Shown: in pieces, positions 5,498 to 61,697 of the stretch
Layout: each line of letters opens with the position of its first letter
Numbering within the stretch: the stretch's first letter is position 1
Source of the DNA: Chrysomallon squamiferum
Lineage: Eukaryota > Animalia > Mollusca
DNA: 64,000 nucleotides
NCBI GenBank assembly: GCA_012295275.1
Contig: CM022675.1
Span: forward strand, 2,356,001-2,420,000
Direction of reading: 5' to 3'
Translations under genes and position numbers: made by a program
The notes under the pieces: model-generated
Database searches by the model: none
The model's input: the letters and a program-made list of their open reading frames with translations, nothing else
What the model was told of the DNA's origin: nothing

Positions 5498-5538
<41 letters not shown>

Positions 5539-6335: not shown

Positions 6336-6366
<31 letters not shown>

Positions 6367-7247: not shown

Positions 7248-7303
<56 letters not shown>

Positions 7304-9808: not shown

Positions 9809-9841
<33 letters not shown>

Positions 9842-9982: not shown

Positions 9983-10046
<64 letters not shown>

Positions 10047-10315: not shown

Positions 10316-10366
<51 letters not shown>

Positions 10367-11207: not shown

Positions 11208-11298
<91 letters not shown>

Positions 11299-11696: not shown

Positions 11697-11752
<56 letters not shown>

Positions 11753-14073
11753 AATAATACAATTATTGTGATTATTGTAACAAATAGTGTTTGTAATTCA
11801 CTTACTTGTTGAAACCGAGTTCCCTGCAAATCAGAGTGGCAGCATTGAAAAACATTTGGTCAATGTGCATTCTCAGCCATTTACCTTTGTAGAAAAGTTC
11901 TAATCGACCTTCTTTAGTTGTGTTACCACCAACCAGACGAGCCTTCACTTTATACGTAACGAAGGAAGAAATATATTTGTATATATACGTGTATGTGTGT
12001 GTTTGTGTGCGTCTCTCTTTCTATCTCTCTCTGTGTCTGTATATGCACACACACATATACACATACACGCACACACGCTCAGACACAGCTACAATCAAGC
12101 CCGTACTGTCAGACACGTTCTTTAAATATTTATTATTTCTAATAAATTTGAGTAAACTGAGCAGAATGAACTCATAACTCATCACTCAAAATAACTGAGA
12201 TAAATTTTCTGTTCTGGGAATCTGCCGATAAATGTTCAGGAACTGTTAATGATCAGTAACAAAACAAATTCACAGATATAAGAGAACTCTAGAGAATGAA
12301 CTGGGTTATAAACATAAAATGTATAATCCATGTCTTTATTTAATTTAGAGTACATCAACATTACCTAGCTCGATATGGGTAATTGTATTTGATACGACTG
12401 CTGTCAAATCTGAAAATAGAGACAAGAACATTGATTCACGTTTATGTTTGTTAGTCCGGAAACGTCAGTATAGCAAATTCGAAAATGCAAATTAATTTAT
12501 CACAAAATTGTTATTATATTTAAACAGAAAAAAAAAAAAAATAATAATAATTGTTCCTACTTGTAGTAAACTGAAATGTAAGTTCTTCATTTAAAGATAC
12601 AGCTGCTGATTCTGAAACTGAAGACCCGTCTTTGAGGTTGATGTTGAACTGGACAAGCGAGGAGTCTATTGAGTTGACTGTGTTTGTGATGTTCTGTCCG
12701 TTTCTGCAGAACAAACAGGATTAACATTGATACTGTTCACAGTGTTCTTAAAGTGATGCCTTTTTATTAACTAACTGATTAATTAATTAATTAATTAATT
12801 TATATATTTTATTTATTTTTGTTTCTGTAAAACTGAATAGTTGGAATACTACTACTTCTACTACTATTATTTATAATAATAATAATAATAATACTAATAC
12901 TAATACTAATAATAATAATAATAATAATAATAAAAGGCATAGCACTGACCGAGAAGCGAAACTTTTTCCAAGTTTTTGACTTTTGCACATGTGCTAATTT
13001 CTCTTTACCAAATTATGATTATTTTACTTAACCAGTACACTGTTTTAAAGATGGACGAAAAGTTCATCAACGATTGTTCTTGTTGTTGAAGGAAAACCCA
13101 TCGAATAAAGTTATTTTAACTGTTTGTATCAAAACAGTTCAAGGATAAAATGTCAGCTGACATACTTCTGCATGCTTTCAGAACAAAGATGGGTTTTGAT
13201 ACAAATTATGATTTTGGCCACGATTTTGCAGCTGTAGTTTTCGAATCGAAAGCGCGCTAGAAGTCAGACACCGCCAATGTTATGTACAGAAAATATAGGC
13301 AGAAGTATTAGCGTGTAGTGTGTAGGTTTATCGCTTCGGGCAGATCACTTGATGGTCATTGCTTTCCTGTAAGGTGGGTTCAATTCGCTACCCCTCCGTC
13401 ACGTAGGTCTATATTTTATCTTTTTAGGGGAACGATTTGCAAGTGAATTTATTGATGCACTAGGTCTATGGCTGCATTATTATTATTTCTTCATCTTCGT
13501 AAACTTATCCAGCTTGATCTTCTAGGCCGAGGCTTTTGCAATTTGGATTAAAAACAATTAGGACAGAAATTAAGATTAACATAATTTGTTCAAGGCTGGC
13601 CGATTGTTTCAGTTTCTTGTTACACTTTTCTTTCTGTACTATTATATAAAATATAAAACAAACAAAATAATAACTAACCTTTCAGTTTGTTTGGTTGTTA
13701 TCACTTTGGTGACAGTCACGGTTGTAGCACGGTTGTTTTTTTTCACAAGTGACAGAGACTTTTGTGTCGAGGTTTGTCATATACTTTTCACTGAACTGAA
13801 CGATCACATCTCGACAGCGACCTGCATTTTGCTTTAAAACGGGTCACAGTTGGAATACTCTATCAGTGTGTAACAGAACTTTGTGCAAAAACAACATGAA
13901 AACTGTTCTGTAAGTTGCTTACTGACAACAAAATTCCAAAAAGAAATTAAGCACGTAATTAATTACATATATATGTGTGTGTGTGTGTTGTGTGTTGGGT
14001 GTGTATGTGTGTGTGTGTGTGCATGTGTGTGTGTATGTGTGTGTGCGCGTGTTGTGTGTGTATGTGTGTGTGT

Positions 14074-14111
<38 letters not shown>

Positions 14112-14148
14112 GTGTGTGTATGTGTGTGTATGTGTGTGTGTCTGCATG

Positions 14149-14197
<49 letters not shown>

Positions 14198-14453
14198 TAA
14201 AAAGGAAATAAAACTAACCTGAGTTACCCCACCACATTCACTATCCTGAACATTGAGAGCCACGCCCTGTTTTCCCGAGGGTAGATCTGATTTTGTGAAC
14301 GTGCAACCTGTCGTGTCTTTTTGATCTTTAGCATAGACGACACTACTGAACGTTTCAGCAGGATTAATAACAATCAACATTGAACTTTTCTGACAGGTAA
14401 CTTCGTCTGAAAATAAATAGATTAATACTGATATACAACAACAGCAGCAACAT

Positions 14454-14503
<50 letters not shown>

Positions 14504-15121
14504 TTACTACTATTACTACTACTACTAGTACTATTATTACTATTATTAGTGTCATTACTCTTGTTGTTGTTGTTGTTGTTGTTGCTGCTGCTGCTGTAAA
14601 TGTGGTAGATAACTCACATCTTTTGTTTTCACATCTGTCACCATAGAAACCAGGTGGACAGAAACACGCCTTGTTTCCATTGTCATTGTAACAGATACCT
14701 CCATCAGAGCCACAAGAGTCAGTCTGACTGGTACACGGACTTGAACCACTCAAACCTGAAAACACAAAGTTTATGTTTCTCATCTACCTTTTTCTTCTTT
14801 CTTTGGATGATGTTATTTGACGTGTTAACAATGAAAACAATGACAAAAGAAAACAAAAAGGAAAGTCACTTTTCATTGCAGTTATCCACGTTTGACATAT
14901 TAGAATTACAATACTGACTTTTCTTCAGCTCACAGTTGTAGCCAGTGTAGTCATTTCCACAGTCACAGGTGCCGTCATTTTGACAAGTTTTATTATTAGC
15001 ACAATCCTGACCTTGTCGTCTGCAGTCGAAGTACTCTTCACCTGTAAACAAGTAAAACATCTTAACATATGTCGGTACACTAGAACTAAATAAGAACAAA
15101 TATATATCAAGAGATACATAA

Positions 15122-15163
<42 letters not shown>

Positions 15164-15383
15164 CAACAACAACAACAACAACAACAATAATAATACTAAT
15201 ACTAATAATAATAACAAAAGCAATAAATAAATAAAATAATAAATAAAATAACAAATAATTGATGTTAGTAAATTAATAAGAACAAACAAAACAAAGTGTT
15301 TTATAAATAAAAGTAGAGAAAGGACAGTTACCCAGCGTGACTGAACAGCTTAGAAGTATCAGATACACAAATGATATCCACAT
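2822..15383 (-). CDS. Gene A (17 exons in window): EGF-EGF-ZP protein with four SRCR domains inserted in the ZP-C region; furin-site and TM exons lie beyond the window start; 1-nt frameshift in the ZP-N2 exon as assembled
   Basis: Exons with GT-AG ends and chaining phases: 15332-15383, 14919-15041, 14618-14755, 14219-14406, 13679-13831, 12561-12703, 12365-12409, 11806-11947, 10927-11099, 9558-9717, 7928-8079, 6948-7098, 6577-6749, 6147-6303, 5032-5198, 3437-3530, 2822-2987. Collinear with gene B. Confidence 0.85.
3437..3530 (-). CDS. Gene A exon ZP-C2
   Basis: ELESGTVRVEACTADNQKTGEDSETLKIIENS; ZP-C V-x-x-C-x-A...II-x-x-(G/S)CP motif; 94 nt, phase 1 to 2. Confidence 0.85.
3807..4943 (-). mobile_element. 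Degenerate Tigger/pogo-like (Tc1/mariner superfamily) DNA transposon in a gene A intron
   Basis: ORF 3937-4311 has CENP-B-type HTH motifs (ALIKWF...SGEML...A.QLG...WTGRFKKRWGI...G.SG.V); TA-CAGTGAACCTGGCG and CGAGCTTTACTG-TA imperfect TIRs with TA flanks; no complete DDE domain. Confidence 0.8.
5032..5198 (-). CDS. Gene A exon SRCR4 C-half
   Basis: SNAKAVRGGSYGRGSGPIFLQFITCLGNETSLEQCYFQWGNHLCDHADDAGVICA; canonical SRCR. Confidence 0.92.
5568..6180. repeat. ~61-bp minisatellite of SRCR4a exon end plus splice donor (gene A)
   Basis: ~10 units; the last overlaps the true exon/intron junction at 6146/6147. Confidence 0.9.
6147..6303 (-). CDS. Gene A exon SRCR4 N-half
   Basis: IRLVNG...EGRVEI...WGTVCD...CRMLGF; 157 nt, phase 1 to 2. 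Confidence 0.92.
6577..6749 (-). CDS. Gene A exon SRCR3 C-half
   Basis: SYSGVLLGQNEHNLTSSDTKRWISGVTCSGVEKHINQC...LALLCA; 173 nt. Confidence 0.88.
6948..7098 (-). CDS. Gene A exon SRCR3 N-half
   Basis: DISNIELRLVGGPSYGVVEVKKNNVWGKITEAVYTVTIAKVMCRTLGFN. Confidence 0.9.
7928..8079 (-). CDS. Gene A exon SRCR2 C-half
   Basis: YEVYGAGESVTDNRFKYDVKCKGWEHGLHLCFLRLLDEASDCHSAQIKCS; 152 nt, phase 2 to 1. Confidence 0.85.
9558..9717 (-). CDS. Gene A exon SRCR2 N-half
   Basis: NPTPYKLQLVGGKNKQEGKLQVFDDGNWKTLCQPNTWENNLAEAVCRQLDYG. Confidence 0.9.
10927..11099 (-). CDS. Gene A exon SRCR1 C-half
   Basis: AYGLPRGKGFFQEGTGKIFQLWLSCYGHERNMDECTEWTIYDCGNDCWGDDVGIICD. Confidence 0.9.
11806..11947 (-). CDS. Gene A exon SRCR1 N-half
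   Basis: VKARLVGGNTTKEGRLELFYKGKWLRMHIDQMFFNAATLICRELGFN; 142 nt. Confidence 0.88.
12365..12409 (-). CDS. Gene A 45-nt linker micro-exon
   Basis: LTAVVSNTITHIEL; AG/GT, phase 1-1; homologue in B at 49044-49088. Confidence 0.75.
12561..12703 (-). CDS. Gene A exon: ZP interdomain linker and start of ZP-C
   Basis: NGQNITNTVNSIDSSLVQFNINLKDGSSVSESAAVSLNEELTFQFTT; V-x-L-(G/N)-(D/E)-x-L-x-F motif typical of the ZP-C start. Confidence 0.85.
13679..13831 (-). CDS. Gene A exon ZP-N2 (153 nt; +1 frameshift in an A8 run)
   Basis: QNAGRCRDVIVQFSEKYMTNLDTKVSVTCEK/NNRATTVTVTKVITTKQTER; the B homologue is 152 nt. Confidence 0.8.
14219..14406 (-). CDS. Gene A exon ZP-N1
   Basis: YEVTCQKSSMLIVINPAETFSSVVYAKDQKDTTGCTFTKSDLPSGKQGVALNVQDSECGGVTQ; V-x-C-x-x-x-x-M...F-x-x-x-x-Y...C...CG ZP-N pattern. 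Confidence 0.88.
14618..14755 (-). CDS. Gene A exon EGF2
   Basis: PCTSQTDSCGSDGGICYNDNGNKACFCPPGFYGDRCE; six-Cys EGF. Confidence 0.92.
14919..15041 (-). CDS. Gene A exon EGF1
   Basis: EEYFDCRRQGQDCANNKTCQNDGTCDCGNDYTGYNCELKK. Confidence 0.92.
15332..15383 (-). CDS. Gene A start codon and signal peptide exon
   Basis: MWISFVYLILLSCSVTL(G); an acceptor AG 12 nt upstream of the ATG implies a non-coding 5' exon. Confidence 0.85.
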
Positions 15384-25728: not shown

Positions 25729-27379
25729 ACAGCTACCACTACAGCCAGACAGGATTAAACAGCTACCACTACAGTCAGACATGATTAAACAGCTACCACT
25801 ACAGTCAAACATGATTAAACAGCTACCACTACACCCAGACAGGATTAAACAGCTACCACTACAGTCAGACAGGATTAAACAGCTACCACTACAGTCAGAC
25901 ATGATTAAACAGCTACCACTACAGTCAAACATGATTAAACAGGTACCCCTACAGCCAGACATGATTAAACAGCTACCACTACAGTCAAACATGATTAAAG
26001 AGCTATCACTACAGCAAGACATGATTAAACAGCTACCACTACAGCCAGACAGGATTAAACAGCTACCAGTACAGTCAGACATGATTAAACAGCTACCAGT
26101 ACAGTCAGACATGATTAAACAGCTACCAGTACAGTCAGACATGATTAAACAGCTACCAGTACAGTCAGACAGGATTAAACAGCTATCTCTAATTCAGACA
26201 TGATTAAACAGCTGCCACTACAGTCAGGCATGATTAAACAGCCGCCACTAAAGGCAGACATGATTAAACAGACATCAGTACAGTCAGACATGATTAAACA
26301 GCTACCGCTACAGTCAGACATGATTAAACAGCTACCACTACAGTCAGACATGATTAAACAGCTACCACTACAGTCAGACATGATTAAACAGCCACCACTA
26401 CAGTCAGACAGGATTAAACAGCTACCTATACAGTCAGACAGGATTAAACAGCTACCACTACAGTCAGACAGGATTAAACAGCTACCACTACAGTCAGACA
26501 GGATTAAACAGCTACCATTACAGCCAGACAGGATTGAACAGCTACCACTACAGTCAGACAGGATTAAACAGCTACTACTACAGTCAAACATGATTAAACA
26601 GCTACCACTACAGTCAGACAGGATTAAACAGCTACCACTACAGTCAGACATGATTAAACAGCTACCACTACAGTCAGACATGATTAAACAGCCATCAGTA
26701 TAGACAGACATGATTAAACAGCTACCACTACAGTCAGACATTATTAAACAGCTATCTCTAATTCAGACATGATTAAACAGCTACCACTACAGTCAGACAT
26801 GATTAAACAGCTACCAGTACAGTCAGTCATGATTAAACAGCCGCCACTAAAGGCAGATATGATTAAACAGACATCAGTACAGTCAGACATGATTAAACAG
26901 CTACCGCTACAGTCAGACATGATTAAACAGCTACCAGTACAGTGAGACATGATTAAACAGCTACCAGTACAGTGAGACATGATTAAATAGGTACCAGTAC
27001 AGTGAGACATGATTAACAGCCATCAGTACAGTCAGACATGATTAAACAGCTGCCACTACAGTCAGACATGATTAAACAGCTACCAGTACAGTGAGACATG
27101 ATTAAACAGCTACCAGTACAGTGAGACATGATTAACAGCCATCAGTACAGTCAGACATGATTAAACAGCTACCACTACAGTCAGACATGATTAAACAGCC
27201 ATCAGTACAGTGAGACCTGATTAAACAGCTACGAGTACAGTGAGACATGATTAAACATCTACCAGTACAGTGAGACATGATTAAACATCCATCACTACAG
27301 TCAGACATGATTAAACAGCCATCAGTACAGTCAGACATGATTAAACATCCATCACTACAGTCAGACATGATTAAACAGC
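25729..27379. repeat. 30-bp minisatellite, about 55 units
   Basis: Consensus acagtcagacatgattaaacagctaccact with occasional 29-bp variants. Confidence 0.95.
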
Positions 27380-27976
27380 GACTCACGAGACTAGTTAAAA
27401 ACAAGTATCTCATATCGACTTTGCACGTATAAAGAAAAACATTGTGTAGGACAGTCTCAAGATGGAATGGTCACAGATAATATGGCTACGGATGCAGTTT
27501 TGAATATTATTTATGGTAAACTTAGATGCAGACAGACTGCATGTAAATACATAAAATACGTACGATTCCCCCTACATTCGGTTCATATGAGACGAAACGT
27601 AGAAAAAAAAAAGATATATATATATATATATATATATAAAAGTAAAAAAAGGTAAAAAAGATCTAGCATAGATATACACTTCATTATAAGCTTTTATCCT
27701 CCTCTTTCTGATAAGATCAACCACAGAAGTTTAGATATTTAAAATCAAAGATGGCGTCTACGTTCTCTTCACACTTCAGTAAAACCTGGGAGTTTCCGTA
27801 CAATCTTCAGCACATTAATTTTCAGTTAACTGCACTCAGGCTTTTAACTTGATCCTTTAGGACATTAAAACCAGAAGACAGAAACAATGTGAAAATTCGT
27901 ATTATTATATATGCCTGTCCGTGTGTGCCTATGTGTTATTTTTTGTGAATGTTGGTCTGCATTATTATTATTATTA

Positions 27977-39649: not shown

Positions 39650-40310
39650 ACAGATATAGTATCAGTATCACTAGTAGCAGTGTGTACATATATAGTATCA
39701 GTATCACTAGTATATATAGCAGTATCACTAGTACATATATATTATCAGTATCACTAGTAGCAGTGTGTACAGATATAGTATCAGTATCACTAATAGAAGT
39801 GTGTACAGATATATTATCAGTATCACTAGTAGAAGTATGTACAGATACATTATCAGTATCACTAGTAGAAGTATGTACAGATACATTATCAGTATCACTA
39901 GTAGAAGTATGTACAGATACATTATCAGTATCACTAATAGAAGTATGTACAGATATATTATCAGTATCACTAGTAGAAGTATGTACAGATATATTATCAG
40001 TATCACTAGTAGAAGTATGTACAGATATATTATCAGTATCACTAGTAGAAGTATGTACAGATATATTATCAGTATCACTAGTAGAAGTATGTACAGATAT
40101 ATTATCAATATCACTAGTAGAAGTATGTACACATATTCATTATCAGTATCACTAGTAGCAGTATGTATAGATATATTATCAGTATCACTAATAGAAGTAT
40201 GTACAGATATATTATCAGTATCACTAGTAGCAGTATGTATAGATACATGATCAGTATCACTAATAGAAGTGTGTACAGATACATTATCAGTATCAGTAAT
40301 AGCAGTATGT
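39650..40310. repeat. 36-bp minisatellite abutting the scaffold gap
   Basis: Consensus agtatcactagtagaagtatgtacagatatattatc; true length unknown because of the gap. Confidence 0.92.
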
Positions 40311-40521
40311 ATAGGATACATAATTAGTATTCCTATAAAAATATGATATATAAAAAGTGATCCATATAAAATAATTTTATCCATTGATTTATACAGAACC
40401 ACTTCTCATTTAAAACTAAAATTGTTTCTTATGGATTAGAAATTATTGCTGATTATACAGTTGTTTGTAGCTGAATATTGGTTACATAACACCGGATGTA
40501 TCATGTCACAAATTACCCACC

Positions 40522-41437: not shown

Positions 41438-41625
41438 CTAAGTCTGATGTTTGTTGACATCTTCCTTGTATTGGGTGGACTTTTTCTTCTTCAGGAAGAG
41501 CATCGCCACAATCCCAATGACAAGTGAGAAGATGATCACCATGACAACACAGAGAACAATCAGAATCGTGTTGTTGATACCCAGTTGATCAGATCCTTGC
41601 TTTTCACCTGATGTCTGTGAGTCAC
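41438..41625 (-). CDS. Gene B terminal exon: TM helix and short cytoplasmic tail
   Basis: DSQTSGEKQGSDQLGINNTILIVLCVVMVIIFSLVIGIVAMLFLKKKKSTQYKEDVNKHQT*. Confidence 0.9.
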
Positions 41626-42672
41626 CTAAAATGTAGGAAGTTTTTTAAATGTAAGATATTTTTTGTTTTTCTTCTTATTGCAACTAGTATCTATTAGCCT
41701 GTTTACAGAATTAAAATCAAATATGAGTTACGGTAAAAAAATAACTAAAAAAAGTGTTTTAAATGTCAGCTGTTTAGTTTCTTTCTTGCAAGTAACATAA
41801 GCTAAATCAAATGTGCATTTAAATTTTGATTTAATTTAACAAAACTAAAGTGGTGACAACAAATTAATGGGACAAATTAATAGAAAATGTCTAAAATAAA
41901 CTCACTTGGTGTTCGATCTTCATTCATCACGTTCAGAACAGTAAATGTTTTTCTGACAAGTTCATCAGACGTTTCAGCCGATCTTCGTTTTCTTCCAAAC
42001 CCTTTCTTGCCATTGCAGTCCACCTGACAGTGAAAGTATGATGATTTATTTATTATCTACGTTCTTATATATAGTTGTTTAAATTTTATTAAAATGTATA
42101 TTAATACATTTATTATTTATATATAATATTAATTATTTACTAAATAAGTAGTAGCAGTAGCAGTAGTGATAATTATAATATCAGTGGTAGTACTAGAATT
42201 AACGTAGTCTTAATGAAAATAAAAAGATAATGAAAGGAAAGAAGAAAAACAAAATGAAAGAAATATTTTTTTGGTTACTGTTCTGTATATTTTTTTAATA
42301 TATGAATGTTTCACATATTATTCAAGAATAATAAGACTAGGTGATAAAACATTAGCGGTTTTTGAAATAAAGAACTTTGAAATTGCAACATATAGTTTAA
42401 TGCAGGATTTTACCAATTTTGTGCTGTTATATTAGCTAACAGGATGCGTATGGTACCTTTAAAGTGTGTTTGTTAATTGTGATTTTACAAATTTATCTTT
42501 GTTATTTCATAGAAATCAAATTCTTTCGTCAGTTTTCTTGTCAGTTTTGTCTGCTATTAAATTGACTCTCAGGTATCGTTCTTAATCCTTTTCTTATCTT
42601 GTTTACATTACGGGGCAGATAGACTTTAACAAGCCTGCCTTACAGATACTATTTGAAGGAAATTGAGCGAAC

Positions 42673-42735
<63 letters not shown>

Positions 42736-43669
42736 AAATTATTTAAGGACAATACGAAATAAATATTTAAAAAAAAAAATTAATATCTTTCGAAAGTAGC
42801 AATTCTCAAGTTGTAACTTAATATTTGAATATATTATTTTTTCTAATAAGATTTTACTAATTTCAAACTATAATGTATTTAAATATATTCCAAATGTATC
42901 CTTCGTTAACACTGGCATTACATTTTTAAAGATATACGTAATGATATTTTGACAACAACAACAACAACAAAAAATGGTTTTGTCTATCTAGTAAATTAAA
43001 TACCTAGTAAATTAAATTTGTGTATGTTAAAACCTCTGACTTATATTTCAGAGGAGATAACTTGATAAATTCAACATTCTTCTTTACCGTCATAATAATA
43101 AACTATGGTTTTTTGTTTGTTATTGTTATATATATATTCTTGTTTGTTATTAGTTGTTTGTTTTTTTTGGTTTGTTTTTTTACAATATCTAATAAATATC
43201 TATTAGTACTATTTAATATAAAAATAAAAAGTGTGACAGTTGAGTTCACTTTTGTTACTAACATTCATTTAAACAAATTATTGTCTGATGTGTATATTTT
43301 AAGCTCACAAAATAAAACACATACGATAAAATTATCTAAATCATATGTACAAATGTACACTCAGATGATCGAACTTACTGGTTCACAGAGAGATTTTTGA
43401 TCTGGAGGACAAACTTTGACAGAACATTCTGTAGAGACTGCGTTGTTTTTGTTAAAGGTGAAAGCTTTCAACTTGAATGTGACGTTGTTTCCCGATCTTT
43501 CAGGTTCCTGTATCATCAGTTTACCAGTCTCAGACGATGGACAGCTGAATAAATAAAAAATTTAAGATAAAATAGCATTTCTGTTTAGTTTTCTCGATAT
43601 GAATAAACTCCAGGTGTCCTAAAGAGAAATTCGCTGTTTTAGTTATTAAAAGTTATGAAGTTATATATT

Positions 43670-43721
<52 letters not shown>

Positions 43722-43927
43722 GGAGGCAATTGTAAATATTTCCAAAATAATTACTATGCAGTTTGGGTGCTTATCCAGATGTGATTAATTTATGTGAAAA
43801 TTTATTTGAAACCAGAATCTATCTCGCTTGTTGAAGTGAAAAAAATAAATAAAATAAAATACAAATAAATAAACAAATAAATAAATAAATAAATAAATGT
43901 TAAATGAAAAAAAGAAAAAAAAGTTAG

Positions 43928-44021
<94 letters not shown>

Positions 44022-44555
44022 CAAGAACAACAAAAACAACAGCAACAACAATAGTAATAACAACAATAACAACTACAACAAGAATAATGATGCTGATGAT
44101 GATTGAACTCAGTATTTCCTAGTTAAAAATATAGGCGTATAAAAATTCAAGTTTATGAGACTTGTGCTAAACAAGTATAATATGTATATAAACAGTTAAA
44201 AATAAAATTTTACCTGTCTTCAATGATTTTCAAAGTTTCTCTGTCTTCTCCAGTTTTCTGATTATCTGCAGTACATGACTCCACCCTGAGAGTGCCTGTT
44301 TCTAGCTCTGTTTAAAAGTATTTCAATATCTGTGTTTATAAATTTCAAGTTGAATTATATTCTTTGCAAGGAGTTCTACTGAAGCGTATGCTAAGGGGTG
44401 GAAATTAAATGTCATCTTTTTCTATTATTTAAAAAAAAATAAAAAATAATGTATTCTTATTTTTATTTATTTATTTATTTTATTATTATTTTAATTTTTT
44501 TCAGAAACAAATAATAATAAGAATAAATAATATACTACTACTACTACTACTACCG

Positions 44556-44617
<62 letters not shown>

Positions 44618-45576
44618 AAGAAATAAATGATGGGTGCTCCTGTACTTAAAACACAGATTTAATAAGACGTTAAATTTTTTCAGCTGATTTCGAAGACTGG
44701 GCGCGCAGCTGATAAAGAAATAAAGTGTTAATTTGTTTCATTATAATAGTTCAAATGGTAGGTTAGCAATACTACTATTACTATTAGTCGTAGTCCTAGT
44801 CCTAGTAGTACTTGTAGTAGTAGCAGCATAATAGTTGTATGTATTGTGCTTGTTATTGTTATTGTTCATTAATTGATTCATTAATTATTTAATTTTGTAT
44901 TTATTTATTTTTCTATGTATTATTATTATTATTAGTAGTAGTAGTAGTAGTATTAATATTAGTATTAGTATTATTTTGTGCTCATGGAATCCATTATTTG
45001 GGCGAAAAGAGAAATGACAGATATTTAGCCGAGAAAGATTTAAATTGTTTTATAATTGTAACGTTTCATTTTGACATTCCGTAAATAATAATATCGTAAA
45101 TAATAGGTGATAAAAAGCAAAAAGCTAGTTAAAATAGAAATGTAATGATCTGCACTTGATTAGTGATACCTGCACATTTGATGCCAGCATCCTGTCCATG
45201 GTCACATAGAAAGTTTCCCCATTGAAAATTACACTGTTCAAGACTCGTTTCATTTCCCAAACAGCGAATATCACGCAGAAAGATAGGTCCTGATCCTTCA
45301 CCAAAACGGGAGCTATCAACTGCTGTTGCATTTGAACTGCAAAGAATGGAATGTGACCTTTTAAAGTATATTTCTTTACTATCATTTCATTTATTATACT
45401 CGTTTTTAATACTCTTACTCTTACTGTGCTATATAAAGAACTTCTAGAATAGTCGTGATTAATGACTTTCTCAGTCAAATACATTTTTCTGTAGTAACTA
45501 ATTATTACTAAGATATTGTGACAACTGCTATAATAATCATCATTAATGATGCCGAAACGACAGAGAAAATTGAGAA

Positions 45577-45612
<36 letters not shown>

Positions 45613-47062
45613 TAATAAAAATTAAAATTAAAAAATATAAATACAAAAATAAAATACGTAGGCTGTTAATCGTAGTTGTTATAAATAAATTATTTCTGAA
45701 ATGAACTCTATTATCAATGACATTGTAATAGCTGTTATAATAATCATTATGAATAACTTACTTAGTGAAACCTAGCATTCTGCAGTAAACAGCTGTTATA
45801 ATAACCATTATGAATAACTTACTTAATGAAACCCAGCATTCTGCAGTAAACATCTGTTATAATAATCATTATTAAGAACTTATTAGTGAAACTCAGCATT
45901 ATGCAGTAAATATCTGTTATAATAACCATTATTAATAACTTACTTAGTGAAACCCAGCATTCTGGAGTAAACAGCTGTTATAATAATGATTGTTAATAAC
46001 TTACTTAGTGAAACCCAGCATTCTGGAGTAAACAGCTATTATAATAATGATTGTTAATAACTTACTTATTGAAACCTAGCATTCTGCAGTAAACAGCTGC
46101 GTTGTAATCAGTATGATATTCATCACAGACTGTGCCCCACATTCCAAGATATTTAATCTCTACTCGACCTTCTCGTTCTGAACTGCCTCCAACCAGACGA
46201 ATCTTAATTTCTTCTTTTTCATCTGCAGTAACAAAATATCCTATAACACACTAAATGTTCCTTGACGTATCAAACGTAAATACAATTTTTAAGTTAGATT
46301 TTATCACATTATTTTGTGTCAGAGTTTGGTCTCTAATACAATGAATGTTATTTTCTTTACAGGAAATTATTAAACATGTGGTAGATGTTTAGTGACTGCT
46401 GTCTAAAATACATTACCTGAACACAGCAGGGCTGTGTACTGCTCATGATCTTCGTATTTTCTAAGTCTGAGGTAACACTCATTAATGTTCTTTTCCAGTC
46501 CTGAACATAGTACACGTGATGTCCAAACCTTTTTGTTGTTTGACGTCAGATTATCCTCATTTTCAGTCAGTAATATTGCTTTATAACTTCTTTAAATAAT
46601 ACATAAAAATTACATCAATTTACATAGAGTAATTATGCCAATTCTTATATTAGTTTAAATACTATTATGGGTGTCATTTTACTATTATTATTATTATTAT
46701 TATTATCATCATCATCATCACTATCATCAGCATCATCATCATCATCATTAGTTTTACTGGTATTAGTCCTTGGTTTCCTGTGATATTACATTCTGTTTGT
46801 ACTTACTCGTTAAATCCAAGTGTTCTGCACAAAACTCTAGCAACTGATGGAGAAGAACAATCATTATTCATTCTGCCCCACTCATTGTTTATTTTTACTT
46901 CAACTACACCGTAGTTACTGCTTGGACCACCAACTAGTCGTAACTCAATGTTTGATATGTCCACTAGAAAATAAACATAAAAATAAAATCAATGCATTCA
47001 CTGATAAATAACTTTTAAATACAGCATGTATCTATCGGTTAGATGAGTTGAATGTTGTTTTA

Positions 47063-47138
<76 letters not shown>

Positions 47139-47834
47139 GTCATCATTTTATTTTGGCGTCTGCAGTAAAAAGCATTCACTATTATAACTTGACAATGTGA
47201 CAGGATGATTAAAAACATAAAACAAAGTTAACCTTTCTTGCGTTCTAAATGTTGTCTCTGTATAAGTCGTTATTGTTATCTGATGGACGTGAGACAATAC
47301 AAGAAACTGATAGTTTGAACATTAATACCTGAACACTTAATATACAGAGATTTGCATTCACTCTCTTCATTCCGAAGTCTAAGAAAAGACAAATGTAGAG
47401 CAGAGGCATAACCACCACTGATAACCTCATACTTCCATTTATTTCCAGTAACTGTTTCAGCAGGATGACTTTCTTCTACTCTGTGAAGTAACACACGCAA
47501 AACAAAAATAAAATTAAAAATTATTTCAAAAATATATCTTAGTGGAAGGACAGCATACAGGTTTAGAGAAGCAAACGTTGCAATGATATAAATAATAAAC
47601 AATAAGAATTAAAGCAAAAAGGAGAAACGTAATACCAGATGTGGTTTATTCAATCCAGAGTCTTTTATAACTGATGGTTTTGTTTAGAAATGTTGAAATT
47701 TATATCAACATGTATTATTCTCTGTGTATTTACAGATGGGTGTTTGTGGTTTTGTTTGTGATTACATTAATACTACTACTATTACTATACTAATATACTA
47801 CTATACTACGGCTACTACTTCTACTACCACTAAA

Positions 47835-47867
<33 letters not shown>

Positions 47868-47869
47868 GA

Positions 47870-47900
<31 letters not shown>

Positions 47901-49251
47901 ACAGTTTAACGATTAAGTTTAAAAAGGTTTACTAACTTTGCATATCCCATTTGCCGGCACACAACGTCAGCATTTCGTCTCTCACGGTACGTTGTGTTAC
48001 ACACTGAATTCCATTTGTCATCATCAAATACTTGAAGATTTCCTTCTTGTTTGCTATTTCCACCGACCAGCCGCAGTTTGTATGGTTTAGGATTTTCTGT
48101 TACAGTGGAACAAAACACATATTTTAATCTTCATAACTGAGAGAAACTGTATGTGATATGTTTTCAGATATTAACAACAGTCACAACAACCATTATCATT
48201 ATGATGATAATAAAACTAACAATGGTGATGATAATGATGGTGGTGATGATGATGATAATATTTCTTTACCATCACATATAATTCCAATATCTTCTCCTTT
48301 GCAAGCATAATCGCAGTCCTTAATCTTCCACGTATAGCAATAATCTAAATTCGTTTCAAATCCAAAACACCCTAAATCACCTTTCCAAATTTGTCCACTT
48401 CCTTCTGGGAAGAAACCTTTACCATGTTGCAGACCAAACGCACTGTTATGTACAAACGTAATTGTTTAATGAGTGTTAACACACACCCACACACACAAAC
48501 GCACACACAAACACACAAACATATACACACCCACATACAAAAACACACACAGTATTATTTTGTATTTATTTATTTACTTCTTTAATTTATTTTTATTTTT
48601 GTTATTTCTTTCTATATATATTGAATATATATATATATATATATATATTTCTTCATTTAGAAATTTCCATTCATAATACTGAAGAATACGGAATTAGATA
48701 GGTATAAAGATTGCAAGAACCAGCACTATTTGTTATTAACTTACTTTTTGAATCCAAGAGTTCTACAAACCACCGTGGCACGGTAGAAGGTGAAACTACT
48801 GTGCAGTCTGCCCCATTTACCTTTGTTCAGAACTTCTACTCGACCTTCTTTAGTTGTGTTACCATCAACTAGACGAAATTTCACTTTATAATGAAACAGA
48901 AAAAAAAAAAACATTAATAATAATAGATACAAATTATTTTCATTTTGTAAAATTGCGAACAATTCGCCAGGAACTGTTTATTAATATATTGAAATTTTGA
49001 AGTTGGCATAAAGTAAATAATAAAGTACAAATACATTTATTACCTGGTTCAATGTCGGCAATCTGTTCTGGTACGTCTGCTGTCAAACCTAGAATAAAAA
49101 TAAATAAGAAAAATAAATAAATGTATAAATAAGTAATACCATCCGTATATATGTGTATGTGGCAGCACACGCGCAAAAAAAAAGAGAAAAAAAAGAAAGA
49201 AGTTATTATAATTATTAATACTATTATTATTATTATTATTATTATTGTTTG

Positions 49252-49283
<32 letters not shown>

Positions 49284-49323
49284 GTTGTTGTTGTTATTAT
49301 TATTATTATTATTATTATTGTTG

Positions 49324-49362
<39 letters not shown>

Positions 49363-49586
49363 GCATCATGAATGAAGATAATATGTCAAGAAACAGGTAG
49401 CTCCTACTTGTAATAAATTCAAATGTAAGTTCTTCATCTAAAGATACAGCTGCTGATTCTGAAACTGAAGACCCGTCTTTGAGGTTGATGTTGAACTGGA
49501 CAAGCGAGGAGTCTATTGAGTTGACTGTGTTTGTGATGTTCTGTCTGTTTCTGCTGAATAATATTAAAAACACATTAACAAATGAA

Positions 49587-49682
<96 letters not shown>

Positions 49683-49861
49683 GTCTGTCTATCTACCTAT
49701 CTATTTCTCTATCTAAAATCTACCTTATTAAGATGTTCAGTTTGTTCTTCGCATTCAGCGATATTTTACTTGTAATAGTAAATAAACATAATATTTTTGT
49801 ACACGACGTGAAATTAAGTATAATGATGATAATAATAATAATGATAATAATAATAATAATA

Positions 49862-49896
<35 letters not shown>

Positions 49897-50421
49897 TCTT
49901 ATAATACTTCCATAAAATCAACATAATCGAAGAAACACATGAGATTAAGTAAATAAAACAATTTTAAAACAAAACTACTATTAGTACTATTAGCAAAACT
50001 ACTTCTACTAAAACTACTAGTATTGATAATAAAAATATTAGACTGTGTAAGAGTAACAGACTGTGTAAGTGTAAGAATAACAGTAAGGTAAAGGTAGCTT
50101 TAAAAAGAAACAGCAAAAGAAGAAAACAAATAACGAACCTTTCAATATTTTTGCTTGTTATCACTTTGGTGACTTTCACAATTGTAGACTCATCGTTTTC
50201 CTCACAAATGACATGTACTTTTGAGTCGAAGTTTGTCATGTATTTGTCACTGAACTGAATTATCACATCCCGAGTTCGACCTCCATTTTGCTTTGTAAAC
50301 GATTCAAAATTAGATACAACACTGTTTCAATGTCTAATACTACTTTGTACATACAAAACATTCAAAATCCAACAAATACATAAACAAGTAAGCCAGTGTC
50401 TAAACAGAGTTCACAAATTAA

Positions 50422-50456
<35 letters not shown>

Positions 50457-51388
50457 TATATATAAGATAAATAAATACGAGAAACGAGAAAACTTCATCA
50501 TCTTCACTATATGAATTACATTGAATACTGAGATATAAAACTGATGAGACTGTATTTTGATATACCTTTTAGAGATATTAACATTAAAAAGCTACAGAGA
50601 CATCAGGTGTCTGATGCATAAACTCAAAGCAGGCTTAAAGATTTCAAGAACTGGAATTGAAAAAGTCATAACAAGTTGTTTGTTTAAATGTCTTAATGTT
50701 TATAACTGCATGCAATTGTTTTGCGAAAGTTTCTTTTTTATCATTATTACTATTATTATTATTATTAGTAGTAGTAGTAGTAGTAGTAGTAATTGTAGTA
50801 GTAATAGTAGTAGTAGTATTTACTTTCGACTATCATAACAGTAATATTAACCACATGAATTTCTGTACTATTGTTTTAAAAGATGATACACAGAACAACA
50901 GACAAGATTTTCAGAAAATAAAACTGAAATATGTGATTGAAATTATTAACCTTATTACATTAATCATTAAAACAAATATTAATTACTGGTTATACTGGTC
51001 ATATATATATGTACGTAACTCAAATACTGGACTATGATTGAAAATAGACAATGTATATAACGAAAGAGGAAATAAAAATCCAGGCATTTGTTAGTAAACA
51101 TAACAAAATAATTTGATATAATGTTTTATTATAAACACAGTGAACAATTTGCATTACTATTATTATTACTATTTCTTTATTATAATCTTAGTAAATAACT
51201 TACATCTTTTGTTCTCACACTGGTCTCCATAGAAAGCAGATGGACAGAAACACGCCTTGTTTCCATTATCATTGTAACAGATACCCCCATCAGAGCCACA
51301 AGAGTCAGTCTGATTGGCACAGGGACTTGAACCACTCAAACCTGAAAACACAAATTTATGATTCTGCAGTTTAGACAAACTTCTTAAG

Positions 51389-51471
<83 letters not shown>

Positions 51472-51896
51472 TCACTGAAAACATCTATCCGAACAACCGA
51501 ACAAGAAAAATAATTAAATAAATAATAAGAAGATCGACAAATACAGCAACAGCGACATCATTGATCAAATATCCAAGTGAATGCTTTAAGTGATCATTAT
51601 TTGTTACAGGTTGTTATTTGTTTTAATCTTAAACTTTTCACATTTTTAAATTATAAATCTTACTTTTCTTCAGCTCACAGTTGTAGCCAGTGTAGTCATT
51701 TCCACAGTCACAGGTGCCGTCATTTTGACAAGTTTTATTATTAGCACAATCCTGACCTTGTCGTCTGCAGTCGAAGTACTCTTCACCTGTAAACAACATT
51801 TTGACATAGGATAACTTTCACGACTGAAAATTGTTATTAAATCAAAGAAAGAAAAAATATGACAGATTTAGTTTAAATTCCAATAGAGGTACCAGG

Positions 51897-51954
<58 letters not shown>

Positions 51955-52463
51955 TAGAAAAGAACAGGTTTTAGGAAGAATAATGTGGAGATAACCAGTA
52001 GACATGACAACTGTTGAGACCAGTATGAAATAAAGAAAGCAGCATATCGAAATTATAGTCATCAACATTTTTATTTCAAATTTTATTTATTTATTTATTT
52101 ATTTAGTAATATTAATCATTATTTACTTATTTTATTATCTGAGTTATATATTTTTAAAAATATTTCACTCTTCAGATGATAAATCTATACACTGTATTTA
52201 ATTACTGAACTCGTCTTTTACTAATCCCTATTTCACTATGTAAAAAAATAATATATCGTCATTTAAAGGAATTGTTTCTAAAATATTAATGTTATAATTT
52301 GAATGATGTATTTTTATTTTATATATTATGCTTCACTTTGTTAACTATCTATTTTCAACTTCAGACACATACAATATTACTATAAAGAAACAGACAAGAA
52401 AAGAAAGTTACCTAGAGTGATGAAACAACTTAGGAGTATCAGATAGACAAAGGATATCCACAT
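41438..52463 (-). CDS. Gene B (18 exons seen, ATG to TAG): EGF-EGF-ZP(SRCRx4)-TM protein; the first ZP-N exon is absent from the assembly
   Basis: Exons: 52412-52463, 51664-51786, 51204-51341, 50139-50290, 49408-49550, 49044-49088, 48745-48883, 48270-48442, 47937-48096, 47329-47480, 46807-46963, 46417-46589, 46066-46222, 45170-45336, 44214-44307, 43379-43544, 41906-42023, 41438-41625. Adding a 188-nt exon like gene A's gives 2685 nt, i.e. 894 aa plus stop. Confidence 0.85.
41906..42023 (-). CDS. Gene B exon with consensus furin cleavage site and EHP
   Basis: VDCNGKKGFGRKRRSAETSDELVRKTFTVLNVMNEDRTP. Confidence 0.9.
43379..43544 (-). CDS. Gene B exon ZP-C3
   Basis: CPSSETGKLMIQEPERSGNNVTFKLKAFTFNKNNAVSTECSVKVCPPDQKSLCEP. 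Confidence 0.9.
44214..44307 (-). CDS. Gene B exon ZP-C2
   Basis: ELETGTLRVESCTADNQKTGEDRETLKIIEDS. Confidence 0.88.
45170..45336 (-). CDS. Gene B exon SRCR4 C-half
   Basis: SNATAVDSSRFGEGSGPIFLRDIRCLGNETSLEQCNFQWGNFLCDHGQDAGIKCA. Confidence 0.9.
45730..46100. repeat. ~61-bp minisatellite of SRCR4a exon end plus splice donor (gene B)
   Basis: ~6 units at the same relative position as in gene A. Confidence 0.9.
46066..46222 (-). CDS. Gene B exon SRCR4 N-half
   Basis: EKEEIKIRLVGGSSEREGRVEIKYLGMWGTVCDEYHTDYNAAVYCRMLGFN. Confidence 0.9.
46417..46589 (-). CDS. Gene B exon SRCR3 C-half
   Basis: SYKAILLTENEDNLTSNNKKVWTSRVLCSGLEKNINECYLRLRKYEDHEQYTALLCS. Confidence 0.87.
46807..46963 (-). CDS. 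Gene B exon SRCR3 N-half
   Basis: DISNIELRLVGGPSSNYGVVEVKINNEWGRMNNDCSSPSVARVLCRTLGFN. Confidence 0.88.
47329..47480 (-). CDS. Gene B exon SRCR2 C-half
   Basis: VEESHPAETVTGNKWKYEVISGGYASALHLSFLRLRNEESECKSLYIKCS; same 152 nt and phase as in A. Confidence 0.83.
47937..48096 (-). CDS. Gene B exon SRCR2 N-half
   Basis: NPKPYKLRLVGGNSKQEGNLQVFDDDKWNSVCNTTYRERRNADVVCRQMGYA. Confidence 0.9.
48270..48442 (-). CDS. Gene B exon SRCR1 C-half
   Basis: AFGLQHGKGFFPEGSGQIWKGDLGCFGFETNLDYCYTWKIKDCDYACKGEDIGIICD. Confidence 0.88.
48745..48883 (-). CDS. Gene B exon SRCR1 N-half
   Basis: VKFRLVDGNTTKEGRVEVLNKGKWGRLHSSFTFYRATVVCRTLGFK. Confidence 0.9.
49044..49088 (-). CDS. Gene B 45-nt linker micro-exon
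   Basis: LTADVPEQIADIEP; phase 1-1. Confidence 0.75.
49408..49550 (-). CDS. Gene B exon: ZP interdomain linker and start of ZP-C
   Basis: NRQNITNTVNSIDSSLVQFNINLKDGSSVSESAAVSLDEELTFEFIT. Confidence 0.85.
50139..50290 (-). CDS. Gene B exon ZP-N2
   Basis: QNGGRTRDVIIQFSDKYMTNFDSKVHVICEENDESTIVKVTKVITSKNIER; 152 nt, phase 0 to 2. Confidence 0.85.
51204..51341 (-). CDS. Gene B exon EGF2
   Basis: PCANQTDSCGSDGGICYNDNGNKACFCPSAFYGDQCENKR. Confidence 0.92.
51664..51786 (-). CDS. Gene B exon EGF1
   Basis: Nucleotide-identical by eye to gene A 14919-15041. Confidence 0.92.
52412..52463 (-). CDS. Gene B start codon and signal peptide exon
   Basis: MWISFVYLILLSCFITL(G); GT donor at 52411-52410. Confidence 0.85.
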
Positions 52464-58375: not shown

Positions 58376-58566
58376 TTAAGTAAATGTCATGTTTTTGACA
58401 TCTTCCTTCTTCAGACTGGACTTTTTCTTCCTCAGGAAGACGACCACCACAATCCCAATGACAAGTGAGAAGATGATCACCATGACAACACAGAGAACAA
58501 TCAGAATCGTGGTGTTCACACCAACTTGATCAGATCCATGTTTGTCACCTGATGTCTCTGAGATAC
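58376..58566 (-). CDS. Gene C terminal TM exon
   Basis: ISETSGDKHGSDQVGVNTTILIVLCVVMVIIFSLVIGIVVVVFLRKKKSSLKKEDVKNMTFT*. Confidence 0.9.
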
Positions 58567-58959
58567 CTAGAAAGCAGCACATTTTTAAACGTCAGATTTT
58601 TGGAACCTTTCTTGCAGCTAATATATATGAACGAAAATCTCCATTTAACTGTTTGTTTAATACGACAAAACTAAATGAAATTAAAGAAAACAAATAAACT
58701 CACTCGGTGTTCGATCTTCTACAATCACGTCCAGGACAGTGAATGTCTTTCTGACAAGTTCATCAGACGTTTCAGCAGATCTTCGTTTTCTTCCAGACGC
58801 TGCCTTCCCGTTGCAGTCCACCTGAAATTATAAATATGAATGTGAAATTTGATTGTCTGATTTCAGATTTTGAGGAAAACGTTCAGCATTTCTCCTACTT
58901 GAAACAAATATAGCCATTGAGAGAATGAAATAATACTACTAATAATAATACTAATAATA

Positions 58960-59031
<72 letters not shown>

Positions 59032-60690
59032 CAGGTTTAGTACAACCAACGTAAAAGTTTGATTAGAAATTTTAAAACTTACAGGGTCGCACTGAGATTT
59101 TTTATCTGGAGGACAAACTTTGACAGAACATTCTGTAGAGACTGCGTTGTTTTTGTCTTTGTTTCTAAAACTGACACTTTGTTAGATTTACATTTCAGGG
59201 GAGATAAACTTTAACAAGCCTGACTTACAGAAACTATCTGAAGGAAATTGAGCGAATTATTATTAAAACAATTTTTTACAAATTATTTAAGAACAATACG
59301 GAAAAGTATTTAAGAAATAAATAGGTTTTCAAAGTAGCAATTTTCAAGTTGTAACTTAATATTTAAATATATTTCTTCCTTCTTATAAGGTTTTACCAGT
59401 TTCAAGCTATCATTTATTTAAATATATTCCTAATGCTGTCCTTTGTTAAAATACAGATAACCTTTTAATGATATACGTAAAGGTATTTTCAGAAAAAAAA
59501 AAAAAAGTAGCCAGTTGTTTTGTGTCCGTTTTCTGGCCGGTTTTGTCTACGTAGTAAATTAACTACGAATTATCGTTCTTAGACTTTTACTCATATTTAA
59601 ACTTCAGATGTACATTTCAGGGGAGATAACTTGCTAAATTTAACAGTCTTCTTTACCGTTATAGTAATAATCTATGGGTTTTTTCTTGTTTGTTTTTTTC
59701 ATTGTTTTTTGTTGATATTTTAACTTTATTATTATTTTTTTTTTTTGTTGATTTTTTTATTCAGATTTTTCAAATATCTCGTAACTGCTGTAAGTATTAT
59801 TTAATACAATAACAAACAATGTAAAAATTGTGTTCACTTTTATCACTAATAATCATCTAGACAACATCATTCTCTGATGTGCATATTTTAAGCTGACGAA
59901 ATAAAACACATAAAATAAAATTATCTAAAACTAATAGAAGAAAATGATAAAACTTACAGGGTCGCACTGAGATTTTTGATCTGGAGGACAAACTTTGACA
60001 GAACATTCCGTAGAGACTGCGTTGTTTTTGTTAAAGGTGAAAGCTTTCAACTTGAATGTGACGTTGTTTCCCGATCTTTCAGGCTCCTGTATCATCAGTT
60101 TACCAGTCTCAGACGATGGACAGCTGAATAAATAAAAAATATAAGATAAAATAGCATTTCTGTTTAGTTTTCTCGATATGAATAAACTCTAGGTGTTTTA
60201 AAAGGAGATTCACTTATTCTAATTATTAGAATCTATAAAGTTATATATTTTTCAAAAAATAATACGAGGTAATTGTAAATATTTTCAAAAGAATTAGTCT
60301 GAGTGTCTATCCAGAGGTCATTAATTTACGTAAAATATTTATTTGAATCTAGAAAGAATCTTGCTAGCTGAAGTGAGAAAGAAAAGAAAATAATATATAT
60401 ATTTTTAAATAATTATAATGTTAATAACATAACGAGAAATATAACAAAATAATAATAATAATAATAATTATAATGATAATGATGATTATGATGATGATGA
60501 TGTTCATATTCTCTAGTGCTTCTCGGAAGCGATTAAAAATCCATGTTTATGAGTTCTGGGCTAAACAAGTATAAGTGTATAAAAAATATTTACCTGTCTT
60601 CAATGATTTTTAGAGTTTCCCTATCTTCTCCAGTTTTCTGATTATCAGCAGTACATGATTCCAGCCTGAGAGTACCTGAGTTTGCTGGCT
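58376..60690 (-). CDS. Gene C, last four exons (ZP-C2, ZP-C3, furin/EHP, TM) of a third paralogue; upstream part lost at the N gap
   Basis: Exons 60594-60690, 59958-60123, 58704-58821, 58376-58566; same phases as gene B, high exon similarity and partly alignable introns. Confidence 0.85.
58704..58821 (-). CDS. Gene C furin-site/EHP exon
   Basis: VDCNGKAASGRKRRSAETSDELVRKTFTVLDVIVEDRTP. Confidence 0.9.
59083..59164 (-). other. Partial duplicate of the 3' half of gene C ZP-C3 exon (possible alternative exon)
   Basis: NKDKNNAVSTECSVKVCPPDKKSQCDP with GTAAG donor and a TTTTAG acceptor. Confidence 0.6.
59958..60123 (-). CDS. Gene C exon ZP-C3
   Basis: 166 nt, near-identical to gene B 43379-43544, ends KSQCDP. 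Confidence 0.9.
60594..60690 (-). CDS. Gene C exon ZP-C2
   Basis: EPANSGTLRLESCTADNQKTGEDRETLKIIEDS; 97 nt, phase 1 to 2. Confidence 0.88.
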
Positions 60691-61507: not shown

Positions 61508-61697
61508 ATGAAGTTTCCCGTCAGAAAACCTCCATTGCGATCGTTATTAATCCTGCTGGAACAGTCAGTAGAGTTGTCTATGCTATAGGTAAAAACAGAC
61601 AAAACACTTTGTACGTTTACACAATCAGATGACCCTCGGAAAAACAGGGTGTGGCTATCAGAGTTAAAAAAATCGTGAGTGTTGCGGGGTGACTCAC
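61508..61697 (+). pseudogene. Inverted, degenerate copy of the ZP-N1 exon
   Basis: ttcag AT GAA GTT TCC CGT CAG AAA...ATT AAT CCT GCT...GTT GTC TAT GCT...GAA AAA CAG GGT GTG GCT...GGG GTG ACT CAC aligns with gene A 14219-14406; frameshifts, first Cys lost, donor lost. Confidence 0.8.

Follow-up and report, generated by a model that had tools for sequence, protein, structure and literature searches.

Proteins that combine SRCR repeats with a zona pellucida (ZP) module are known from DMBT1 (SALSA, hensin) and LZP1, and the EGFZP proteins of molluscs carry EGF domains together with the same module. In this study, gene B (41438–52463, minus strand) and its paralogue gene A were compared with these systems. 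Both genes lie in one window, the whole stretch of 64,000 nucleotides (nt) of Chrysomallon squamiferum DNA that was analysed (GCA_012295275.1, contig CM022675.1, positions 2,356,001 to 2,420,000). The window is AT-rich, microsatellite-rich animal DNA with a GC content of 29.5% and two gaps of 200 N. EGFZP and LZP1 were defined by Shimizu et al. (2022), and LZP1 has the order signal peptide, SRCR, ZP, transmembrane (TM) helix (PMC9290575). The accessible text and supplement of that paper describe no inserts of the kind reported below, and Chrysomallon is not in the supplement.

The family of genes A and B shares with molluscan EGFZP (PfuEGFZP and Lottia LUSP-17) the signal peptide, two EGF domains, ZP module, furin site, TM helix and tandem clusters (PMC9290575). 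Unlike molluscan EGFZP, the family has a ZP-C domain split by a cassette of 440 amino acids, Arg or Lys in place of a ZP-N tyrosine, and many more copies. As in DMBT1 and LZP1, a single secreted or membrane protein combines SRCR repeats with a ZP module. The SRCRs of DMBT1 and LZP1 are N-terminal to an intact ZP module, with CUB in addition in DMBT1, while those of genes A and B are within ZP-C. Since ZP-C is interrupted by the cassette, the genes represent a derived EGFZP variant and not a plain member.

Extra sequence is tolerated in several ZP modules, such as the ZP-C subdomain of ZP3, the insertions of trout vitelline envelope proteins and the insertion in the ZP-N DE loop of C. elegans CUTL-9. 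These additions are short or non-domain and lie at other sites, and none is described as a whole mobile domain in the ZP-C B-C loop (PMC7456536). In nematode proteins with PAN and ZP, the PAN domain is upstream. The accessible parts of PMC7456536, PMC11673550 and PMC13361971 describe no domain inside ZP-C. A full-text literature search, whose coverage excluded most subscription journals, found no paper on a domain inserted in ZP-C or on this architecture. The initial annotation of the window had likewise not recognised the architecture from described proteins, and this search agreed with it.

The results placed genes A and B in a molluscan EGF-EGF-ZP (EGFZP) subfamily with a phase-1 cassette in the B-C loop of ZP-C. 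With a probability of about 0.6, the intact protein would act as a scaffold displaying exchangeable binding domains and not as a classical filament. The architecture is very probably real at the level of the family. It is a lineage-specific EGFZP subfamily with an internal ZP-C slot, so that the initial annotation was right in essence and the family is wider than its account. The parts of gene B are as follows.

52412–52463, minus strand: exon 1, signal peptide; ATG at 52463, phase-1 donor.
51664–51786, minus strand: EGF-like domain 1; DNA 100% identical to gene A.
51204–51341, minus strand: EGF-like domain 2 (PF07974, E 7e-4); phase-1 end.
50291–51203, minus strand: intron lacking the expected first ZP-N exon, which is present in gene A and Gigantopelta; canonical frame broken.
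50139–50290, minus strand: second ZP-N exon (strands F and G, Cys4) and start of the linker; phase-0 acceptor by homology with a junction spliced in RNA run X2.
49408–49550, minus strand: linker and ZP-C strands A (with the internal hydrophobic patch, IHP) and B; phase-1 end; profile match to position 264, aligned with uromodulin 455–490 via the family profile.
49044–49088, minus strand: 45-nt spacer, phase 1-1, opening the cassette; 69% identical to gene A 12365–12409.
48270–48883, minus strand: SRCR1, 6 Cys (exons 48883–48745 and 48442–48270); PF00530.
47329–48096, minus strand: SRCR2, degenerate, 4 Cys (exons 48096–47937 and 47480–47329); second half without Pfam match.
46417–46963, minus strand: SRCR3, 5 Cys (exons 46963–46807 and 46586–46417); PF00530.
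45170–46222, minus strand: SRCR4, the most canonical, 6 Cys (exons 46222–46066 and 45336–45170); PF00530; phase-1 end.
44214–44307, minus strand: ZP-C from strand C onward, Cys5 motif VESC; phase-1 acceptor.
43379–43544, minus strand: remaining ZP-C, FxF motif and Cys6–8 region; PF00100 positions 76–133, E 5e-6.
41906–42023, minus strand: furin-type site RKRR and a strand like the external hydrophobic patch (EHP).
41438–41625, minus strand: TM helix, short tail and stop.

Gene B has 18 exons, all with AG/GT ends. A single open frame of 726 amino acids runs across 15 of them, from the second ZP-N exon (50290) to the stop at 41438. The initial annotation had given the same exon order for genes A and B; the series was confirmed by exons and phases, except that the first ZP-N exon is absent from gene B. 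The continuation of gene B into RKRR, EHP and TM was found as described, at 41906–42023 and 41438–41625. A candidate 45-nt exon at 49724–49768 was rejected; it has no counterpart in gene A, and paralogue RNA joins the flanking exons directly.

Seven of the eight SRCR half-exons of gene B matched PF00530 (E 5.8e-11 to 1.1e-4). The second half-exon of SRCR2 gave no match, yet it is 49% identical to that of gene A in alignment. The SRCRs of gene B carry 4–6 Cys, compared with 8 in the group B SRCR of DMBT1. Four Cys were counted in SRCR2 of gene B (47329–47480) and six in that of gene A, and the lost pair is apparently both partners of one disulfide. As judged by eye, the C-D-E after WGTV, which would include the cation-binding acidic residues, is kept in SRCR4 only. 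We take the position of the acidic pair to be that of D1019/D1020 of SALSA. CUB was not matched among the 16 exon translations of gene B that were scanned. A 61-bp minisatellite derived from the 3′ end of the first half-exon of SRCR4, including its splice donor, occurs at 45730–46099 in gene B (6 copies) and at 5594–6180 in gene A (9.6 copies). Since the unit includes the donor, the intron contains several spare donors, and read-through would meet stops.

The cassette consists of the spacer and eight SRCR half-exons. It is 1,320 nt long, runs from phase 1 to phase 1 and encodes 440 amino acids. Because it is symmetric, its skipping is also in frame. A ZP profile was based on 33 EGF-ZP relatives without interruption that came from the representative homologue search. 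Gene B with the cassette matched the profile in two pieces, 176–264 (33.1 bits) and 272–454 (124.6 bits). When the cassette was removed, one piece was obtained (176–455, 170.7 bits), as the initial annotation had predicted. The one-piece match identified the exon before the cassette as ZP-C strands A and B, so that its placement in ZP-C, also proposed earlier, was supported by the continuity of the profile at 264/272. The B-C loop at the insertion site has 7–13 residues in all 33 uninterrupted relatives. Via the family profile, the insertion site corresponds to about uromodulin 490–498, between strands B and C.

The nearest proteins of genes A and B were all RefSeq models of the vent snail Gigantopelta aegis. 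P0007 has the order signal, EGF, EGF, ZP-N, ZP-C strands A and B and three SRCRs, and then ends. P0009 begins within an SRCR, which is followed by strand C, RKRR and TM. In other models, the insertion site is occupied by PAN domains according to Pfam: two in P0003, one each in P0005, P0006 and P0011, and two in P0084, a P0006 isoform. P0004 and P0086 have inserts of 83 and 78 residues without a Pfam match, and that of P0004 is a PAN domain by fold. P0001 retains a remnant of 38 amino acids at the site, and P0002 shows a direct join without insert. Both sides of ZP-C are joined around a PAN-sized insert in P0003, P0004, P0005, P0006 and P0086. All models of the insert clade break the profile at 263–283 and, if both sides are present, resume it at 267–272; P0001 is the exception, with two overlapping pieces (to 267 and from 258). 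A Pfam scan of 81 of the 83 representative homologues (P0044 and P0066 were left out as low-complexity) found SRCR in two and PAN in four, all from Gigantopelta.

A tree was calculated with the inserts cut out, except that of P0005, and without gene C, a third paralogue in the window. Ten Gigantopelta models and genes A and B formed one side of a 100/100 branch against the 33 uninterrupted rows. With midpoint rooting, the ZP part of the insert clade nests among these EGFZP-type rows. Sources among nine of the 33 rows were Haliotis (5), Argonauta (1), Capitella (1) and Gigantopelta (1). P0007 and P0009 share no columns, and thus the tree cannot order the SRCR and PAN insertions. Both the Gigantopelta SRCR type (XP_041371612.1 and XP_041372195.1, split over partial models) and the PAN type (XP_041347291.1, XP_041377501.1, XP_041373445.1 and XP_041373054.1) share the clade and the ZP-C insertion point with genes A and B. 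Their catalogue names are only "uncharacterized", "EGF-like domain-containing" and "SRCR group B-like". The Gigantopelta SRCRs are 21–40% identical to those of the window, with no clear one-to-one order. P0021 (XP_041371592.1) is an uninterrupted Gigantopelta EGFZP whose contig is equal in length to that of P0001, P0002, P0007 and P0009, and it is a possible ancestral neighbour of the array.

The location of the SRCR array in an early ZP-C loop of an EGF-ZP gene, proposed in the initial annotation, agreed with the profile continuity, the Gigantopelta models, the tree and the folds of PAN-type members. The single capture of an SRCR array that it assumed was replaced by a general cassette slot, which holds SRCR or PAN in the Gigantopelta models. 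The expectation that annotation would give broken fragments held for RefSeq, where the SRCR type is divided between P0007 and P0009, and apparently for the scaly-foot snail tables considered below. Domain-architecture catalogues do not show the family, because its genes are broken up by standard annotation.

The fold of the split domain was predicted with AlphaFold2. The P0004 model, from a 48-row alignment, had a pLDDT (predicted local distance difference test) of 83.6 and a pTM (predicted template modelling score) of 0.75. Its residues 244–473 resembled the ZP-C of betaglycan (Z 10.3, root-mean-square deviation (rmsd) 3.7, 143 aligned) and of ZP2 (Z 10.1), and residues 279–352 resembled a PAN/apple domain (Z 11.1). 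ZP modules were the top Foldseek matches of this model. In the P0003 model (52 rows, pLDDT 78.3), residues 47–359 resembled uromodulin ZP-C (Z 10.8, rmsd 3.5, 147 aligned), from which two PAN domains loop out. Only weak EGF matches were found in a single-sequence PDB search with P0086. The ZP-C halves are thus predicted to fold as one domain with the insert looped out in PAN-type members, and the earlier proposal that the two parts form one domain received support from the modelled PAN-type P0004 and P0003. The N and C termini of SRCR meet within one sheet (PMC7043408). The termini of SRCR and PAN are close together, which suits insertion.

The scaffold and the cassette differ in divergence. 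In the scaffold exons (EGFs and ZP-C), genes A and B have 91% amino acid identity and a synonymous divergence (dS) of 0.13. In SRCR1–3, the identity is 56% and dS is 0.58, with a ratio of nonsynonymous to synonymous divergence (dN/dS) of 0.59 (95% confidence interval 0.44–0.78); SRCR4 is intermediate. The different dS values indicate different divergence times or histories of scaffold and cassette, as gene conversion or cassette exchange would give. A dN/dS of 0.59 shows that the SRCR exons are under coding constraint, and positive selection on the SRCRs was unsupported.

Sun et al. (2020) reported 65 tandem "DMBT1" paralogues with 0–5 SRCR in the scaly-foot snail (PMC7142155), and Zeng et al. 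likewise named the array DMBT1 (PMC7736800). The accessible parts of Sun et al. describe these genes as DMBT1 with a variable number of SRCRs and mention neither an EGFZP origin nor a split ZP-C. According to the coordinates in PMC7142155, the SRCR starts of model Scaf481_0.9 are 103, 104 and 108 residues apart and are followed by PF00100 at 420–496; the spacings in the window are 109–110, 104 and 107–109. A second PF00100 match of this model (172–202) overlaps an SRCR match and is probably spurious. Four scaly-foot models have the first SRCR at residue 175, compared with 173 computed from a Met in the ZP-N exon of gene A. The second half of SRCR2 is weak in both the scaly-foot models and the window. 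In 45 array rows from one part of the source table (the first and last few rows and the previous part were excluded), 11 of 17 unannotated models lie at most 4 kb 5′ of a same-strand SRCR model and none lies 3′. These results suggest that the scaly-foot "DMBT1" array consists of split models of the cassette EGFZP family. According to PMC7142155, the copies whose spacing agrees are strongly expressed in mantle and scale epithelium and for the most part weakly in gill and symbiont gland. EGF-ZP and SR proteins were reported in peltospirid shells in a 2025 proteome paper (PMC11871041). The supplement of PMC7142155 also lists an "EGF-like domain-containing 1" gene, Scaf20_0.24, with about 70-fold scale enrichment, and an EGF-like family expanded to nine copies in the scaly-foot snail. 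Both may represent further members with other inserts or none.

On the scaffold reading, the display mechanism itself is somewhat more likely than not. A phase-1 intron in the B-C loop would have taken up class 1-1 modules by exon shuffling. ZP-C strands A and B would pair with strands C–G and EHP as one Ig-like domain, with the insert looped out, as in the AlphaFold models of PAN-type members. Tandem duplication with exon-wise homogenisation or exchange would keep the scaffold near constant while the cassette diverges. The intact protein would be a membrane-anchored, furin-releasable matrix scaffold of the shell- and scale-secreting epithelium, a tissue suggested by the scaly-foot tables. Its ligands at the mineralising surface may be matrix polyanions, glycans or microbes.

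The family was examined in sequencing reads over window positions 11790–13900 (gene A), with run X1 and RNA run X2. For gene B, a search of sequencing runs listed no RNA run, which says nothing about its expression. In run X1, the ZP exons were covered by many differing contigs, as many as 22 at a single variant position, and their loose ends in the introns also differed, which fits a large number of paralogues. Two contigs of run X2 show the second ZP-N exon of a paralogue spliced directly to its ZP-C A/B exon, precisely at the exon ends, and one of them extends into first-ZP-N-exon sequence. At least one paralogue is therefore spliced. One X2 contig of 490 nt extends 400 nt beyond the ZP-C A/B exon on its 3′ side, and this part does not match gene A at 85%.

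Several points weigh against the scaffold reading. No transcript joining ZP-C to SRCR was seen in the gene A region, where the spacer and first SRCR exon had no RNA cover. None of the database proteins or transcripts examined has both ZP-C halves around SRCRs, as P0007 stops after SRCR3 and P0009 starts in an SRCR. The Gigantopelta RefSeq models are predictions. Family members of 640–2000 amino acids were not found in one homologue search, which was weak; other searches for long members gave one match, and four matches, all from Gigantopelta. The folds cover PAN-type members and not the four-SRCR form, and resemblance to solved ZP-C structures may have led AlphaFold to unite the halves. The link to the scaly-foot array was drawn from coordinates without comparison of sequences, and several others among the 13 tabulated models fit less well. 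SRCR1–3 are degenerate, with cysteines lost and no acidic pair after the WG motif (by its position in SALSA), so that binding of ligands by them cannot be taken for granted. The FxF motif, furin site, IHP and EHP are retained in the insert family, which fits polymerisation too. Neither gene A nor gene B is intact as assembled, and true decay and assembly error are indistinguishable here.

The last point leads to a further explanation, at roughly even odds and compatible with the scaffold reading. The family architecture would be real, with gene B, and perhaps gene A, a pseudogene or mis-assembled, and the locus would make no such protein. The 188-nt first ZP-N exon of gene A (14406–14219), which matches CUT_N and is 66% identical to P0007, has no counterpart in gene B at 51203–50291 by tblastn or blastn. 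This intron contains 22 chance AG-GT stretches, and none resembles ZP-N. Gene B thus lacks the exon carrying Cys1–3 of ZP-N, and when EGF2 is joined to the canonical acceptor a stop follows at amino acid 119. Gene A has the exon and is frameshifted: its second ZP-N exon (13831–13679) is 153 nt long compared with 152 in gene B, an extra A lies in an A-run, and a stop follows at amino acid 217. Contigs of X1 and X2 over this A-run show other letters and length changes. A decayed exon at 61510, a 98% duplicate and N gaps in the window fit the same explanation. Against it, 15 exons of gene B from 50290 keep AG/GT ends and the open frame. Weak acceptors at 50280 and 50217, or a skip from EGF2 to the spacer, keep the frame without most of ZP-N and could yield a product lacking it. 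A complete ZP-N (Cys1–Cys4) is present in P0004, P0007 and P0086. Gene B is probably a damaged or mis-assembled copy in a birth-and-death array.

The initial annotation had proposed that the furin-cleaved protein polymerises into a ZP filament bearing SRCRs sideways. This is now considered unlikely. In its favour, RKRR, EHP, TM and an FxF-type motif are kept, whole ZP modules match the filament structures of uromodulin and ZPD, and uromodulin filaments themselves bear side branches (PMC7737619). Against it, the column of uromodulin Y402 has R or K in all eight insert-clade rows, compared with Y or F in 21 of the 33 uninterrupted relatives, and Cys4+2, the position of uromodulin Y427, is Y in only 2 of 46 family rows. 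The loss of the ZP-N tyrosine weakens the filament idea. In the uromodulin filament, F499 of strand C is packed against the following subunit (PMC7737619), and the insert, at about uromodulin 490–498, leaves ZP-C just before strand C, adjoining the F499 equivalent. Shimizu et al. expected most EGFZP to remain at the cell surface (PMC9290575). Tyrosine loss and an insert next to the F499 contact make a scaffold that is membrane-tethered or shed more likely than a classical filament.

It is somewhat more doubtful still that the cassette is normally skipped or placed on separate transcripts, giving an ordinary EGFZP and separate SRCR proteins. Skipping would be in frame and leave an intact ZP-C, the direct join exists in P0002, and the RefSeq and scaly-foot annotations break the genes at or within the cassette. 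On the other side, strand B leads into SRCR in P0007, SRCR leads into strand C in P0009, and the five models with PAN-sized inserts noted above join both sides around their inserts. The cassette lacks its own signal peptide and stop, lies on the same strand, is phase-closed and has a dN/dS below 1. An ordinary DMBT1/LZP1-type gene, suggested by the SRCR and ZP domains and by the name "DMBT1" of similar genes, is refuted by the exon order, since the SRCRs lie within ZP-C and not in the LZP1 order. In addition, no CUB was matched among the scanned exon translations of gene B, and the ZP part groups with EGFZP.

With this architecture, the ZP-C fold probably accommodates as many as four whole domains in a core loop. 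This bears on ZP structure and on the loss or change of polymerisation by ZP modules. The family would also provide a clear example of exon shuffling that reached the interior of a domain and placed two unrelated kinds of module in a single slot. The scaly-foot expansion, if the link to it is true, would be re-read as fewer and larger genes derived from a shell-matrix EGFZP and not from DMBT1. A broader model can be offered only tentatively. In peltospirid vent snails, a constant EGF-ZP scaffold, uniform over tens of tandem copies, may carry a ZP-C plug-in slot with rapidly diverging SRCR or PAN cassettes of varying number. The "65 DMBT1 genes" would be its fragments, and the array would form a constant/variable recognition repertoire of the scale and shell epithelium at the interface of mineral and microbe.

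The remaining copies of the family in the window were as follows.

2822–15383, minus strand: gene A, paralogue with matching cassette; same exon series, 3′ exons outside the window.
1–2808, minus strand: 98% duplicate of 5288–8117 (SRCR2b–SRCR4a of gene A), a tandem duplication or assembly artefact; the 3′ end of gene A runs into this block.
58376–60690, minus strand: gene C, 3′ part of a third paralogue, with the ZP-C strand C exon, remaining ZP-C, furin exon and TM exon; 5′ part cut by the N gap at 61247.
61510–61696, plus strand: decayed copy of the first ZP-N exon, the only one in the window besides that of gene A, with stops and the donor lost; on the opposite strand, beside the N gap.

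Gene C also contains a partial extra copy of a ZP-C exon at 59083–59178. This copy and the decayed exon at 61510–61696 are signs of birth-and-death turnover or of local mis-assembly. Insertions in the introns of gene A at about 12950–13600 and 3800–4950 are absent from gene B, and the first is multi-copy in run X1. They look like decayed pieces of DNA transposons, presumably Tigger/pogo-like. Two tandem arrays were found elsewhere in the window. A 1.6-kb array at 25729–27386 repeats about every 30 bp and contains long repetitive open frames on the plus strand, and an array at 39650–40345, adjoining an N gap, has a period of about 33–36 bp.

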